Under the pieces are notes generated by a model. It saw only the letters and a list, made by a program, of their open reading frames with translations, was not told where the DNA came from and did not search any database. A DNA stretch of 64,000 nucleotides from Eledone cirrhosa. Its lineage: Eukaryota. Within the stretch, counting starts at the first letter, position 1. Every line of letters begins with the position of its first letter. The position numbers and the translations under genes are program-made. The DNA lies in NCBI GenBank assembly GCA_964016885.1, contig OZ024747.1:57040001-57104000 (forward strand), written 5' to 3'. Shown piece by piece: positions 16,320 through 59,686 of this stretch.

Positions 16320-16847
16320 GTGTAAATATGTAAGTATATATGTGTGTATTTATGTAAGTACATATGTATGTATTTATGTATGTAAATATGTAAGTATGTA
16401 TGTATGTATATATTTATATATGTAAGTATGTAAGTATGTATATATGTATTCATGCATGTATGTTTGTTTGCATATATGATTATTAATATGTATATATATA
16501 TATATATATATACACATACACACACATACATATCTTTCTCTCTATATATATATACATACTGGGGTTGGTGCATTGAATAGTGTAATTAAGACATTCAAAC
16601 ATTAATTGAATGAGCACTCAATACATGTGAACAGAGTGTAAGATTTATTTTCTGACAGGGACTTCTAAATTTTAGCTATTGCTTCATCATCATACATATA
16701 CATACAAACATACATACATGCATACAAACTTACATACATACATGCATACAAACTTACATACATACATGCATACATACATACATACATACATACATACATA
16801 CATACATACATACATACATACATACATACATACATACATACATACAT

Positions 16848-17370
16848 GATGGATGCAAACTCTGCTAAGATTATTGCAATTGCTTGTCAGGTTACAAAAT
16901 ATGGTGCACTTCTAGGCTAAGGCCAGCCATACGAACCTGTAACATATCCTGAGCAAGCAAAGCCTGTGTTTGAAGATTTTTTAAGTGGGGAAAAGGCCTT
17001 GCACTCAACCAATCCCACTCTCTGAGCATCGGAAACTCTACCCGAAAAGGAGAACTGGTCAACATCATTGGATGCTTCCGAAGCTGCAGGGTTTCCGCTC
17101 TCTTAGAAAGGTGTTGTGACAACAACTGGGGGCATTTCACTCCCAGGTAAAAAAAAGTAAAAAAAGTACTATTTGGATGGCTGTTGACTCTGCTGAGTTC
17201 CTTTGCCATTTGCCGGGTCTTGTATTTCATCCAGCAGGGTGTCCGAATATCACCCCCTCCCTCACCAGGCAAGCTTGGTGGGGTTGCCAGTTTAGTCGCC
17301 GATGACCTGACCATGAGACAGGTTGTACTGTGTTACATGTTACCAGTAGCACTCAAGAGTGACCTGACAT
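16848..17370 (-). mobile_element. Diverged relative of family C
   Basis: Shares CCCACTCTCT, GTCAACATCATTGGAT and GGGGTTGCCAGTTTAGTCGCC...GTGACCTGACATA blocks. Confidence 0.65.
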
Positions 17371-17399
17371 ACATACAAGAGAGTTTCTATAATTTAATA

Positions 17400-18200
17400 C
17401 AAAGACCTTTTGAAAATCTCAATATCATTGATGAGGCCCTTCCACTCCAGTGAAAGAGAAGGATCTGTCTGAGCCTCACATGATAGAATCATTGAAACTG
17501 TTTAGGATGGTGCCAATACATGACAATAAGAGAGCACACATGCAACTTTCCACAATGCATTTCTGTTAACAATATCGAAAGCTTTGTCAGATCAAAAAAG
17601 CTAATACAAGTTCAATGCAATTTTCCTGAAGCTGTCTAGCTGAGAAAATCATGTCAGTAATGCTGGGTCAGTCAGGAAAACCAGATTAACTTTCAGAAAG
17701 AACAAAATCAGCAACATTCATTAACCGACTGTATAGAAGCACCTCACATAAAACTTTACAAGAAAAAGCAATGATATACCCCAATAGTTTCCACAATCAT
17801 GCTCGTTACTGTTTCCTTAATACAGAACTACCATTACCACATCTCTCCAGTCCTCAGTTATGGACTCACAAGCCCAGCATTTTGCCAAACAAAAATTAAA
17901 GATGTTGTAGAACTTTCTCACAACCATATTTTAAGAGCTCTAAATACATACATCTACACTTGGAGACCTTCAACTGTTCATCCTCAAGAGAGCTACTATA
18001 AATTCATCTAATGTCAGATGTTCTCCAAGAGTTACTTTTAAAGGTTTTTCCAAAATTAGATTGAAAAAGTCCTCATTGACCATGGAGATCTGGTTCAAAA
18101 GTTAATCAAAGTGCTCTCACCACCTTCACAAAAATATCTCTGCCTGTGTTAAGCAATTAAACCGGCTGTAGCCAGCTACTCAAACTGATGTTTAGGTATT
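17400..18200 (-). pseudogene. Degenerate RTE (BovB-like) LINE reverse transcriptase fragment
   Basis: Minus-strand translation with frameshifts: DWRD..., DCGNYWGISL, SITDMIFSARQLQENCIE, FDLTKAFDIVNRNALWKV. Confidence 0.8.
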
Positions 18201-18782
18201 GTCCTCAAAATAAATAATATCAAAATCTCAGATTCGATATTATGTGAGATAATTATGTGAAAATACCGTGAAAATATAATAGTAAATACAGAGTAATTCA
18301 AATGATAGAGGGTTAAAGCACTTGATCAGAAGTTGATTAGACTGTCACAAACATGGAAGCGTAAGCCTGTAATATATCAGCTCCCTCATGTAATTGTGTT
18401 ATCATCTGGTGATGTCACACTAGTGTCAGGTGCTGTAGAAATAATCACACAACAGCTCTAAATTGGTGACACTGAAATATGTATTATCCAAGAAATATCA
18501 TTATGTAACATCTGTTGCAATGTTGGTTTTAAATATATATGTACGTAAATACATACATGCATACATATATATATATATATATATATATATATAGAGAGAG
18601 AGAGAGAGATAGATACACACATACATATATACATATATAAATATATATATATATATATATATGTACACATATATATATATATATATATATATGTATATAT
18701 GTACACATATATATAAATATAAGTATAAATATATAAATATATATATATATATATATATATATATGTACACATATATATATAT

Positions 18783-19040
18783 AAGAGAGTATTGAAGTTT
18801 GCTTGAAGCATTGTAGAATAATAAGGTAAATTTCTTTAAGTTGTTTGGAAGCCTCGACAGTGCAGATGGGTAAATCTCTGGGTAACAAGATCTGGAATGC
18901 ATTCCTCTACACGTTACAGTCTTATACACGCCACGCATCTCAACGTACACCCACTTACATCTCTCTCTCCACCACCGGATCTTGTTACCCAGAGATTTAC
19001 CCATCTGCATTATCGAGGCTTCCAAACGACTTAAAGAAAT
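18783..19040. mobile_element. Asymmetric fold-back in (TA)n, probably PLE-derived
   Basis: ~65-nt inverted arms (ATTTCTTTAAG...AAGATCTGG / CCGGATCTT...CTTAAAGAAAT); left arm has ~46 extra nt; no hammerhead seen. Confidence 0.6.
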
Positions 19041-19321
19041 ATATATATATATATATAAATATAAATATATAAATATATATATATATATATATATATATAT
19101 ATATATATATATATACTCAAGAACATCCCAACCCCATCCAGGACTACTTATGAGAAATTACTGATAGCTAGTACCACAGCTAGTAAACAAGGACCCACAC
19201 CCCACCCTCCCGTACCAAAATTAGACTTATTGTCCCCTGCTTTTGCTCTTTACTCTCTTTACTCTTTGTTCTTGAATGTTTGGTTGGTAGAGTCCATAAC
19301 ACCAATCAAACCCCTTTTATA

Positions 19322-19366
19322 GCTCTGACGAATCCTACGGTTACGTAAGGAAGAAACATTGTAAGC
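19322..19366 (+). ncRNA. Minimal type I hammerhead motif in a TA-flanked insertion (~19116-19411)
   Basis: GCU-CUGACGA-A-UCCUACG/CGUAAGGA-A-GAAA-CAUUG-UA-AGC. Confidence 0.65.
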
Positions 19367-19524
19367 CAATAATAATCTTTTGATGTTGTACACGCTCTTG
19401 TGTTCTTTATCATATATATATATATATTTCGTTTCTGAATTTGTTTAGCAAGATTCTTTATCTGAACAATATATATATATATATATAACAATATATATAT
19501 ATATATATATAATATATATATATA

Positions 19525-58078: not shown

Positions 58079-58285
58079 GGAAAATGTTTGACCCAGACGG
58101 CAGAGCTCTAGCCGTTTCGACGGCTATTTCTGGACTAATTCTATTTTAGTCCAGAGATAGCTGTCGAAACGGCTTGAGCCCTGCTGTCGGGGTCAAACAT
58201 TTTCCTTTTACCCACTCTACTACCCTAAGTATTGAGTACTCTAGCGCGTTATGGCCCATCTGGTTCCTTACCACACCTCTTTCGT
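58079..58285 (+). mobile_element. Family P palindromic fold-back
   Basis: Same ends as 21779-21975, diverged variant. Confidence 0.8.
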
Positions 58286-58474
58286 TATATATATATATAT
58301 ATATATATATATATATATATATAGCAAATGTAGAACTATGTATAAAATGCTTGAAGAAAAGTAGAGAATAGTGTATTGAAACATGTGTAAGGAAATAAAC
58401 ATGGTTTTTTAAATGTTAGAAGTTGATTTTTCCATCAATATACTTTATATATATGTATATGTATATATATATAC

Positions 58475-58708
58475 TTTTCTGGGTAAAATTCCCGAGATCC
58501 ATGGACGAGTTCTCTCCAGCGGTCTCTGTCCCTCATTATCACTGCCATGTCCTGCGTCTCCAACAGATCAGTGTCTGTCCTTAGGGCATCAACATACGTT
58601 AACCTTGGTCTTCTTCTTCCAGTGTGTCCATATAGGGGCTCCCACAGGAGCACTGAGTGCAATGTCAACCCTGGATGTCGGTGAGCATGTCCAGCTAACC
58701 TCAGTTTT
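58475..58708 (-). pseudogene. RTE-like LINE 3' fragment
   Basis: KLRLAGHAHRHPGLTLHSVLLWEPLYGHTGRRRPRLTYVD...DRDRWRELV. Confidence 0.8.
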
Positions 58709-58916
58709 CATAGTAGTAGACCACTCGGTCCATGGGACGAGTTTGGTAGAAGTTGTTCCACAACAGTTAATCACCATTTCCGAGAACAATTGTTTCACCT
58801 TAGTCGGATCATCAGCTCGGTTAAAAAACACAAAAAAGAAAAACGAGCTGATGATCTGACTAAGGTGAAAAAATTGTTCTTGGAAATGATGAATTAACGG
58901 TTGTGGAACTACTTCT
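58709..58916. mobile_element. PLE fold-back with hammerheads at 58780-58820 (-) and 58844-58882 (+)
   Basis: CCGAG-CUGAUGA-UCC..GGU-GAAA-CAAUUG-UU-CUCGG; homologous to the 3' UTR of the EN-coding element at 48324. Confidence 0.85.
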
Positions 58917-58958
58917 CTCTTTCTCTCTCTCGCTATATATATATATATATATATATAT

Positions 58959-59155
58959 AACGAAGGAAGTGTGGTAAGGAACCAGGTGGACCATAATGCA
59001 TCCGATTACTCGATACTTTGGGTAGTAGAGTGGGTAATAGGAAAATGTTCGGGATCCCGACAGCAGAGCTCAAGCCGTTTCGACGCCTATTTCTGAGTCC
59101 AGACATAGCCGTCGCAATGGCTTGAGCTCTGCCGTCGGGGTCCTGAACATTTTCC
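58959..59155 (-). mobile_element. Family P palindromic fold-back
   Basis: Same ends as the other P copies. Confidence 0.8.
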
Positions 59156-59378
59156 TATATATATATATATATATATATATTTTAATTTGTGTTTGAGACA
59201 CGTTGGCTGAGGGCTTTTGACGGGAGCGGAAATTTGTAAAACGGTGGCCAATCGGGGTATGGAGTTGCATCAGATTCCAGTTGCTAATCACTTTACTGTG
59301 TCAGCCATCATAAACACTCATAGCTGGTTTGCACTGGAGTTGAATTCTGTTGATTGATTGGTTATTGATTAGGCGATA

Positions 59379-59480
59379 CCCGCTGATGAAGCCACATGCG
59401 CCGATTATGCATTGTTGCATAATATAGGCAGACAGTGCACCCTACTGCCGCATTAAGTGTGGCCGAAACTCGAGTCCGGG
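59379..59480 (+). ncRNA. Type I hammerhead with canonical GUC site and ~75-nt branched stem II
   Basis: CCCG-CUGAUGA-A-GCCAC...GUGGC-C-GAAA-CUCGAG-UC-CGGG; 3' hairpin ACTC...TATTGAGTAC at 59537-59572. Confidence 0.8.
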
Positions 59481-59686
59481 AACTACTATAGGCACCTGTT
59501 TATGTGTGTTGTATTGAAGTGAATAACTATGTGTATACTCTGGGAATGTATTCTACATTACCTATTGAGTACGCTGAGATACAACCGGTACTGGCATTGA
59601 TAAATATGTTGGGTCCGTCAACTCCTTTTTATATATATATATATAATAAGGAGTTGATGGACCCAGCATATTTATCAATGCGGGGC

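Follow-up and report, generated by a model that had tools for sequence, protein, structure and literature searches.

Along the 64,000 nt of Eledone cirrhosa contig OZ024747.1 that we analyzed (57,040,001-57,104,000; hereafter the window, in whose coordinates all positions are given), insertions attributed to Penelope-like elements (PLEs) share a short hairpin, which raises the question of whether this hairpin determines where such insertions end. Craig et al. (2021, PMC8557442) regard the mechanism by which PLEs form their tails and inverted ends as unsettled, and the sole in vitro study did not define the RNA signal (Frangieh et al. 2024, PMC11167929); statements about both articles refer to the sections covered here.

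The motif in the window is real. All 14 copies listed in a first-pass annotation are present; they fall into 9 families (4 copies in family A, 2 each in B and C, and 1 each in D, E, F, G, H, and I) and, therefore, do not represent 14 independent cases. Their mutual dissimilarity holds between families, since blastn at E ≤ 0.01 found a single cross-family match, of 31 nt between F and G. The pattern RCTC-N(5-30)-GAGYRCT is matched exactly by 10 of the 14 copies, while the copy at 27527 deviates by a stem mismatch that had already been flagged and those at 58720, 59005, and 59537 deviate in the final RCT. Within 39,340 unmasked bases of the window, the paired form occurs 11 times, compared to a mean of 0.415 and a maximum of 3 in 200 dinucleotide shuffles. 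Furthermore, a covariance model built solely from 8 equal-length metagenome copies yielded 11 hits in the window at E ≤ 5, the top 10 of which are listed copies (those missed are 27527, 48944, 58720, and 59537). Three strict matches absent from the original list (17348, 30280, and 58638) look like chance occurrences.

Each copy in the window corresponds to the hairpin termed H1 below. The family A copies lie at 21904-21930 (+), 42899-42925 (-), 58214-58240 (+), and 59005-59031 (-, RCT decayed). The first is part of a fold-back insertion (21776-21975) with a short arm ending at about 21776 (-) and a long arm ending at 21975 (+), and the short arms of the other three end at about 43046, 58076, and 59158. 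Family B is found at 39903-39926 (+; G-C first pair, hammerhead core at about 39813, short arm ending at about 39623) and 42779-42802 (+; short arm ending at about 42624). For family C, a 3' ORF fragment (48298-48690, +) encoding a GIY-YIG endonuclease of the Hydra type (CxxC and CxH, no CCHH) is followed by a putative minimal type I hammerhead (48867-48906, +; identified by pattern match and by eye) and by an H1 with a 1-nt bulge (48944-48966, +), the tail reaching about 49006; in its second copy (58720-58742, -), RCT is decayed and the tail cut off, and the short arm ends at about 58916 in a (CT)n run. Single copies belong to family D (16613-16637, -; tail of 58 nt to the microsatellite, without linked ORF or hammerhead), E (27527-27549, -; fold-back 27561-27647), F (33940-33967, -; hammerhead core 105 nt upstream, fold-back 33980-34315), G (40427-40449, +; hammerhead core at about 40320, short arm 39980-40035, -), H (57020-57039, +; fold-back 56883-57007), and I (59537-59572, +; long inner stem, RCT decayed), the last lying downstream of a hammerhead-like motif with a long stem II that was recognized by eye (59379-59480, +). 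The short-arm junctions quoted in the first-pass annotation are correct. Two ends that it described as solo, at about 31597 and 60779, both stop at the short register of family G (31592-31662, - and 60778-63199, -), but the latter is not solo, since its pseudo-LTR (pLTR), ending near 60778, is preceded upstream by an endonuclease fragment (63199-62549). The strict pattern match at 58638 adjoins an RTE-like LINE fragment.

The hairpin consists of an RCTC/GAGY stem, a 3' bulge of 2 nt, a covarying inner stem within a variable spacer (9-26 nt), and the terminal RCT. Stem covariation, which had been proposed for the outer stem, was upheld and extended by a second covarying stem and the bulge. Among 62 dereplicated copies, which were selected on CTC/GAG and RCT, the first stem pair is G-C in 41, A-T in 15, and A-C in 4, and the first inner pair is C-G in 30 and T-A in 26; CTC/GAG and RCT are nearly invariant and, therefore, those pairs carry no covariation. 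The inner pairs are formed in 57/62, 48/62, and 42/56 copies compared to 42, 29, and 22 in shuffled controls, which related sequences inflate, and only if the 2-nt bulge is allowed; the score of the model-fitted alignment is 0.450 versus 0.159. The folding strand is not fixed by the ratio of G-U to A-C cells (11 versus 7 of 212, elsewhere 12 versus 9). On their own, the hairpins have low stability (-3 to -8 kcal/mol), and in the minimum-energy folds of the family A and G H1 the bases pair differently.

A PLE origin of the carriers is supported, and judged by protein motifs together with target and hammerhead features, those to which an ORF could be linked belong to the Hydra clade. Family A encodes an intact 715-aa protein in a single ORF, with reverse transcriptase (RT) and C-terminal GIY-YIG endonuclease (EN) and the motifs YRDD and YIG, and families G and F have open frames of 738 codons. 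The carrier families are 37-41% identical in protein. A Pfam check of the single RT-EN ORF and a protein search with the endonuclease fragment returned no match. At the RWK position, A and G have the conservative variant RWR, while no RWK-like motif was detected in the family F frame examined. DKG is replaced by DKT (SDKT in A, G, F, and C), the linker contains CxCX5C in A, C, F, and G, and the EN lacks CCHH and has CxxC and CxH near the C-terminus (by eye). Insertion into (TA)n and a hammerhead in the pLTR are seen as well; at one locus (L201), the hammerhead region matches that listed for Penelope-1_NV, and at another (L395), a Hydra EN is followed after 381 nt by a B-like end. An ORF link was sought for the window families D, E, and H and not found. 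The corresponding properties of the Hydra clade as described are an RWK-like motif, DKT, CxCX5C, absence of CCHH, (TA)n targets, a hammerhead, and an inverted 5'-truncated copy with a tail at one end only (PMC8557442).

The annotation had regarded the motif as a clade-wide signal of dissimilar PLE families; its occurrence extends across Hydra-clade families but not to PLEs in general. A PLE family with a CCHH endonuclease from the same genome makes short and long ends without the hairpin: the motif was found neither after its short end nor in 20 of 21 long-end extensions, and the single remaining case is a chimera. This non-Hydra family places the motif at the clade level rather than across all PLEs. 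Likewise, inspection by eye of GAGCACT occurrences 3-17 in the Naiad/Chlamys section of the Craig et al. supplement revealed no such hairpin. During sampling, family 13 was dropped since its upstream region is an abundant SINE, and families 7, 9, and 10 as well as most singletons were taken as chance or unrelated repeats.

The main new result is that full-length elements contain the hairpin twice, in the order hammerhead, H1, spacer, H2, and ATG (families A, C, F, and G), with an H1-H2 spacing of 68-92 nt depending on the family. The H2 of family A is strict in 23 of 29 listed loci, carries one substitution in 4, and is lost by truncation in 2. Family G has H2 in 9/9 read-through copies and family C, with a loop of about 85 nt, in 7 (folded for 2), while the tandem arrangement was also found in F, H, and one further ORF-linked family, as a single copy each. 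H2 was sought and not found for families B and E, both of which have sharp long ends; they may have no read-through copies, or only degenerate ones. Moreover, sample family 8 (fam8) continues past its long end only into a degenerate look-alike. Among metagenome relatives picked by protein only (29 loci with the ORF start and at least 150 nt upstream), the motif occurs twice in 19, once in 5, and not at all in 5, with H2 located 12-48 nt before the ORF start; their 5' regions contain 43 motifs versus 0.1 in shuffles, with an antisense motif in 1/29 and 2 motifs in 134,394 ORF bases as controls. Elements are young, with many intact ORFs. The genome-wide count of the tandem pattern (1,952 versus 596 in the control) is satellite-inflated and dominated by family A and, hence, is not a frequency estimate.

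The two hairpins correspond to the two kinds of insertion end. Short ends precede H1, and long ('tailed') ends H2, by a few nucleotides, so that the initial claim that the motif marks short-arm ends holds for H1 but was incomplete. Of 132 ends in families A, C, F, and G, 58 lie at most 12 nt 5' of H1 and 51 at most 12 nt 5' of H2, while 10 are elsewhere, 12 lack a microsatellite run, and 1 is a read-through; thus, 109 of the 119 microsatellite-abutting ends are beside a hairpin, and the predicted clustering just 5' of RCTC was recovered. Of 11 ends in metagenome loci, 7 fall 3-5 nt ahead of H1 or H2, 3 are elsewhere, and 1 is inside the motif. Over all sample families, 152 ends comprise 59 short, 66 long, 6 other, and 21 without microsatellite, after removal of 8 'short' fam8 ends (from 160) that are actually long ends of the CCHH-type family and were misread because a chimeric reference had caught them. 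Both fam6 and fam8 have long ends only (3 and 3), and in family E the distance from the short end to H1 is 9-18 nt. Among 48 diverging (inverted) pairs, all 39 that were fully classified combine one long and one short end. Ends share 2-3 nt of TA microhomology with the template, some carry short template-like duplications, and the remaining TA dinucleotides of the UTR go unused. Ordinary insertions lack H2 and short arms lack H1, so the hairpins must act on the template or a longer precursor.

Taken together, the bulged hairpin found twice between hammerhead and start codon, with the short end 5' of H1 and the long end 5' of H2, is likely an RNA protein-binding site that positions the RT start; protein binding, the strand, and internal initiation are what we infer here. 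The RT/EN protein, possibly as a dimer, would bind both hairpins and cut both strands of the (TA)n target. Each target 3' end would then pair with the template 3-8 nt upstream of one hairpin, through TA/TAT microhomology of 2-3 nt, and be extended away from that hairpin, with the H1 and H2 starts on opposite target strands. The two cDNAs, fixed to opposite strands, would be joined head to head, giving a fold-back with one short and one tailed arm, in which the tail is the H1-to-H2 interval. Priming at both hairpins on opposite strands would explain the PLE tail. A more specific version, which we propose only tentatively and at somewhat less than even chances, is that a dimeric enzyme reads the two copies as a ruler: each subunit would prime its own strand beside its own hairpin, every insertion would consist of two opposed cDNAs, the H1-H2 spacing would set the tail length, and moving the 25-nt element would reprogram the start. 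Structured RNAs bound by an RT that fix the start of synthesis are known from the R2 3' UTR element and hepadnavirus epsilon. However, the R2 element is located 5' of the start and is itself copied, and epsilon templates protein priming from its own bulge, whereas the Eledone hairpin is positioned 3' of the start, is left uncopied by synthesis from that site, and occurs as a pair.

A vertebrate precedent for internal initiation, mentioned in the first-pass annotation, does exist: in the Anolis carolinensis Poseidon element PAc, two internal RT start sites bound the tail, both strands are cut and extended, and a dimer is predicted (PMC11167929). As in Eledone, these sites lie downstream of a hammerhead and the target is AT-rich, and the authors hypothesize a protein-binding motif near the ORF start. 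In contrast, PAc belongs to another clade, its start sites lie inside the ORF rather than in the 5' UTR, and no conserved motif is described in the sections covered; its printed template, inspected by eye, lacks RCUC..GAGYRCU and has one bulge-less CUC/GAG hairpin about 8-15 nt (hand count) after the +111-118 site.

It is doubtful that the ends are instead cut sites, left where the endonuclease, guided by the hairpins, has shortened a longer DNA intermediate (cDNA or tandem donor) a few bases upstream of them. Craig et al. ascribed the tail to EN-mediated resolution of an intermediate (PMC8557442), the D. virilis EN needed tail DNA for recognition (PMC11167929), AGYRCT is near-palindromic, and the A-C first pairs (4/62) would be G-T wobbles on the cDNA strand. 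However, the two ends of the anole element match measured RT start sites (PMC11167929), and the TA microhomology and template-like duplications at ends also argue against trimming. Moreover, a variable spacer and covarying inner stem suit a single strand rather than a duplex site.

Hairpin-guided cleavage of the RNA at a distance of about 5 nt on the upstream side, either autocatalytic or by a nuclease, followed by ordinary 3'-end target-primed reverse transcription from both cut ends, is unlikely as well. The fixed offset 5' of a conserved structure would agree with it, as some ribozymes cut at their own 5' edge, and the pLTR hammerhead occupies the same neighborhood (with a U3-A8 core variant in family A), although the hairpins form a separate element 25-60 nt past its cleavage site. 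Against this, only about 13 nucleotides are conserved, and among the best 150 of 283 Rfam matches, nearly all miRNA models on microsatellites, every one is below the gathering score; furthermore, the RT of the anole element initiates within uncut RNA, and mutating the hammerhead leaves insertion unchanged (PMC11167929). We consider it quite improbable that the hairpins serve cis-binding, packaging, or translational self-control as elements of the 5' UTR and adjoin the ends only through TA-rich primer sites: H2 is close to the ORF start and positions -8 to -4 relative to the hairpin are T/A-rich, but other UTR TA dinucleotides are spared and 109/119 ends track the hairpins across differing spacings. 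A motif without present role, simply inherited from a common ancestor or left by an old duplication, is very hard to reconcile with 11-13 positions and the pairing being kept at about 40% protein identity while flanks and loops are unalignable, even though every ORF-linked carrier belongs to one clade.

A short, covarying, and duplicated motif that predicts both ends provides exact mutations for testing, is relevant to the way in which an RT related to telomerase sets the start of its template, and, as a diagnostic, can aid the annotation of Hydra-clade elements and of their non-coding derivatives. Our literature search found no description of it; in the text of Craig et al. covered here, hairpins are unmentioned and the one-short-one-long rule is qualitative only (PMC8557442). 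In the published consensuses covered, the hairpin is present twice in Hydra-1_Ajap and once, at the 3' end, in Hydra-2_Amil and Hydra-2_Ajap, while Hydra-1_Crog contains it as variants and Hydra-1_Obim as degenerate 3' halves only.

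All 14 copies of the motif claimed in the first-pass annotation, here resolved as a bulged hairpin with an RCTC/GAGY outer stem, a 3' bulge, an inner stem, and a terminal RCT, were found where it had placed them, 10/14 fitting the strict pattern and 4/14 differing by one base. They represent 9 families (A to I) of Penelope-like elements (PLEs) with almost no nucleotide similarity between families, and the paired form was observed 11 times in the window, compared to 0.415 in shuffled sequence (39,340 unmasked window bases, 200 dinucleotide shuffles). Among the 150 of 283 Rfam matches listed, none in the window reached the gathering score. 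The host is an animal, apparently cephalopod-like, with a 3.0 Gb genome rich in (TA)n.

The proposed covariation of the stem was borne out by 62 dereplicated copies (44 from metagenomes, about 6 of them resembling chance matches, plus 18 of this genome), in which inner and outer pairs vary in a compensating fashion. The RCTC/GAGY stem runs on into the inner stem across a 2-nt 3' bulge (TT in 33 copies, TC in 17, TA in 6), with the first inner pair being C-G in 30 and T-A in 26 copies, and the outer pair G-C in 41, A-T in 15, A-C in 4, and G-T in 2. Three inner pairs were held in 57/62, 48/62, and 42/56 copies, compared to 42, 29, and 22 after partner shuffling, and no comparable inner-pair signal was obtained from these copies with the bulge set to 0, 1, or 3 nt. 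In the 18 copies from this genome, selected without an inner-stem criterion, the inner pairs were held in 17/18, 16/18, and 15/17. Furthermore, when 92 distinct rows were aligned by fitting them to a model, a procedure biased toward the structure, 97.5% of cells paired and 4/7 pairs showed two-sided changes, figures that ignore the relatedness of rows. The family C hairpin has a 1-nt bulge, and the Hydra-1_Crog consensus, as published in PMC8557442, shows a two-sided change where our dataset is invariant. Isolated hairpins are weak when folded alone, and wobble counts fit folding of either strand.

The hairpin at window position 48944 is preceded by a minimal hammerhead and, further upstream, by part of a GIY-YIG endonuclease. 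ORFs were linked to families A, C, F, and G (pairwise protein identity 37–41%; F and G 54% over 81 aa), and these ORFs show the Hydra-clade signatures RWR (in A and G), SDKT, CxCX5C, no CCHH, and (TA)n targets, as set out in Craig et al. 2021 (PMC8557442). A Hydra endonuclease precedes one B-like end, and a search for ORF links of families D, E, and H yielded none. Families A and G are young; many of their frames are intact, and they also form tandem arrays. The family A hammerhead (loci L112–L140) combines a U3-A8 variant of the core with a long stem II, and its stem III is stable and bears a palindromic loop.

In full-length elements the hairpin is duplicated, in the order hammerhead, first hairpin (H1), spacer, second hairpin (H2), and ATG; insertions have a short end just 5' of H1 and a long, tailed end just 5' of H2. 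H2 was first seen in a family A copy reading past the long end, with the second motif 7 nt further on. It is strict in 23/29 printed family A loci, with one change in 4 more, and is present in 9/9 read-through copies of family G, in 7 copies of family C (with a loop of ~85 nt), and in single copies each of F, H, and a further ORF-linked family; it was looked for in families B and E and not found.

The window, together with 800 kb sampled at even intervals along the genome, yielded 152 ends from 11 families: 59 were short, 66 long, and 6 of another kind; the remaining 21 had no microsatellite. As had been proposed, short ends cluster just 5' of RCTC, the microsatellite beginning 5–9 nt before it in 43/59, while the position of the 66 long ends is family-specific, mostly 54–108 nt past RCTC. 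Eight "short" ends of fam8 were dropped from the tally as long ends of a CCHH-type family that had been picked up through a chimeric fam8 reference; fam6 and fam8, both from the wider genome sample, showed long ends and no short ends there. Among 48 diverging pairs, 9 contained an unclassified end, none was long-long or short-short, and all 39/39 classified pairs joined one long and one short end (p = 2e-12). With natural read-through copies as templates (the family C set including endonuclease-anchored loci), families A, C, F, and G showed ends in register with both hairpins: 58 lay ≤12 nt 5' of H1 and 51 ≤12 nt 5' of H2, the remainder being 10 elsewhere, 12 without a run, and 1 read-through. 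In 49 exactly anchorable ends, the final template-matching base was mostly at −3 to −8, and most showed TA microhomology of 2–3 nt.

The hairpins probably act at the RNA level, since the inserted DNA lacks H2. In Frangieh et al. 2024 (PMC11167929), a tail is bounded by two internal reverse transcriptase (RT) start sites, cleavage and extension take place on both strands, and the protein is predicted to form a dimer. Based on this precedent, a protein would likely bind the hairpins as a dimer, prime internally at each of them on opposite strands, and have its products joined head to head. Trimming of DNA by the endonuclease is an unlikely source of the ends, and their generation by RNA cleavage likewise appears improbable. 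That the hairpins stand beside the ends only incidentally is very hard to credit. The role of the hairpin, internal priming in the preferred reading, is open to direct experimental test. Some Hydra junctions (window 58916–58930; L003, L009, L015, L018, L019; L081, L089) carry (CT)n runs or short duplications resembling the template, which possibly stem from RT slippage at initiation or, alternatively, reflect compound (CT)n(TA)n targets.

An alignment of 44 proteins was used to retrieve 77 metagenome loci. In 29 of these the ORF start is present together with 150 nt or more of sequence before it; they carried two motifs (19), one (5), or none (5), with 43 motifs found vs. 0.1 when shuffled, some loci being duplicates of one family. 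Of 11 terminated metagenome repeat copies, 7 end 3–5 nt before H1 or H2, 1 within the motif, and 3 elsewhere. Moreover, in the accessible part of PMC8557442 the motif is present, without comment, in Hydra consensuses of coral, sea cucumber, and sea louse, and degenerate in Hydra-1_Obim. The motif is real and clade-wide within Hydra-type PLEs, but it does not extend to a CCHH-endonuclease PLE family of the same genome, whose two ends, 56 nt apart, lack it. It is apparently new: no description was found in the literature searched, which was largely open-access and without Repbase notes, including the accessible parts of PMC11167929, PMC8557442, PMC4209133, bioRxiv 10.64898/2026.07.22.740005, and PMC13282606; supplement figures S1–S2 and the GenBank file of PMC11167929 may hold a related structure.

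The CCHH-endonuclease PLE family, which is Neptune/Nematis-like and has a hammerhead, was seen at window 12194–13148, 19428–19466, 27785–28092, and 59969–60229, and at L079, L080, and L086; in 8/21 of its long-end extensions, the 4 bases immediately preceding (TA)n are repeated. Fam8 (L041, L104, L016, L149, L153) forms an apparently non-coding tandem unit of 550–610 nt with one hairpin, a 3' end fixed about 100 nt past it, and variable 5' ends, and no inverted arm was seen at these loci. At L324–L353 (G000:C1:14.2335–14.243 Mb), family A H1 and a TA-rich spacer make up the unit of a 58-bp tandem satellite. Solo tails at L387, L400, and L401, nested beside other PLE ends, start at or just before the hairpin, immediately after (TA)n, and at L389 and L390 a repeat that has no Hydra ORF or hammerhead close by contains a pair of RCTC..GAGYRCT matches spaced 39 nt apart. 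The window also contains LINE reverse-transcriptase fragments (19513–20765 and 58435–58707), which we take to be RTE-like, a 37-bp minisatellite (2422–6089; 100 copies, 95% match), and an abundant SINE-like repeat (6679–6819, 27247–27424, 36305–36491, 59688–59855, and others), whose 5' end adjoins a PLE tail in L039.
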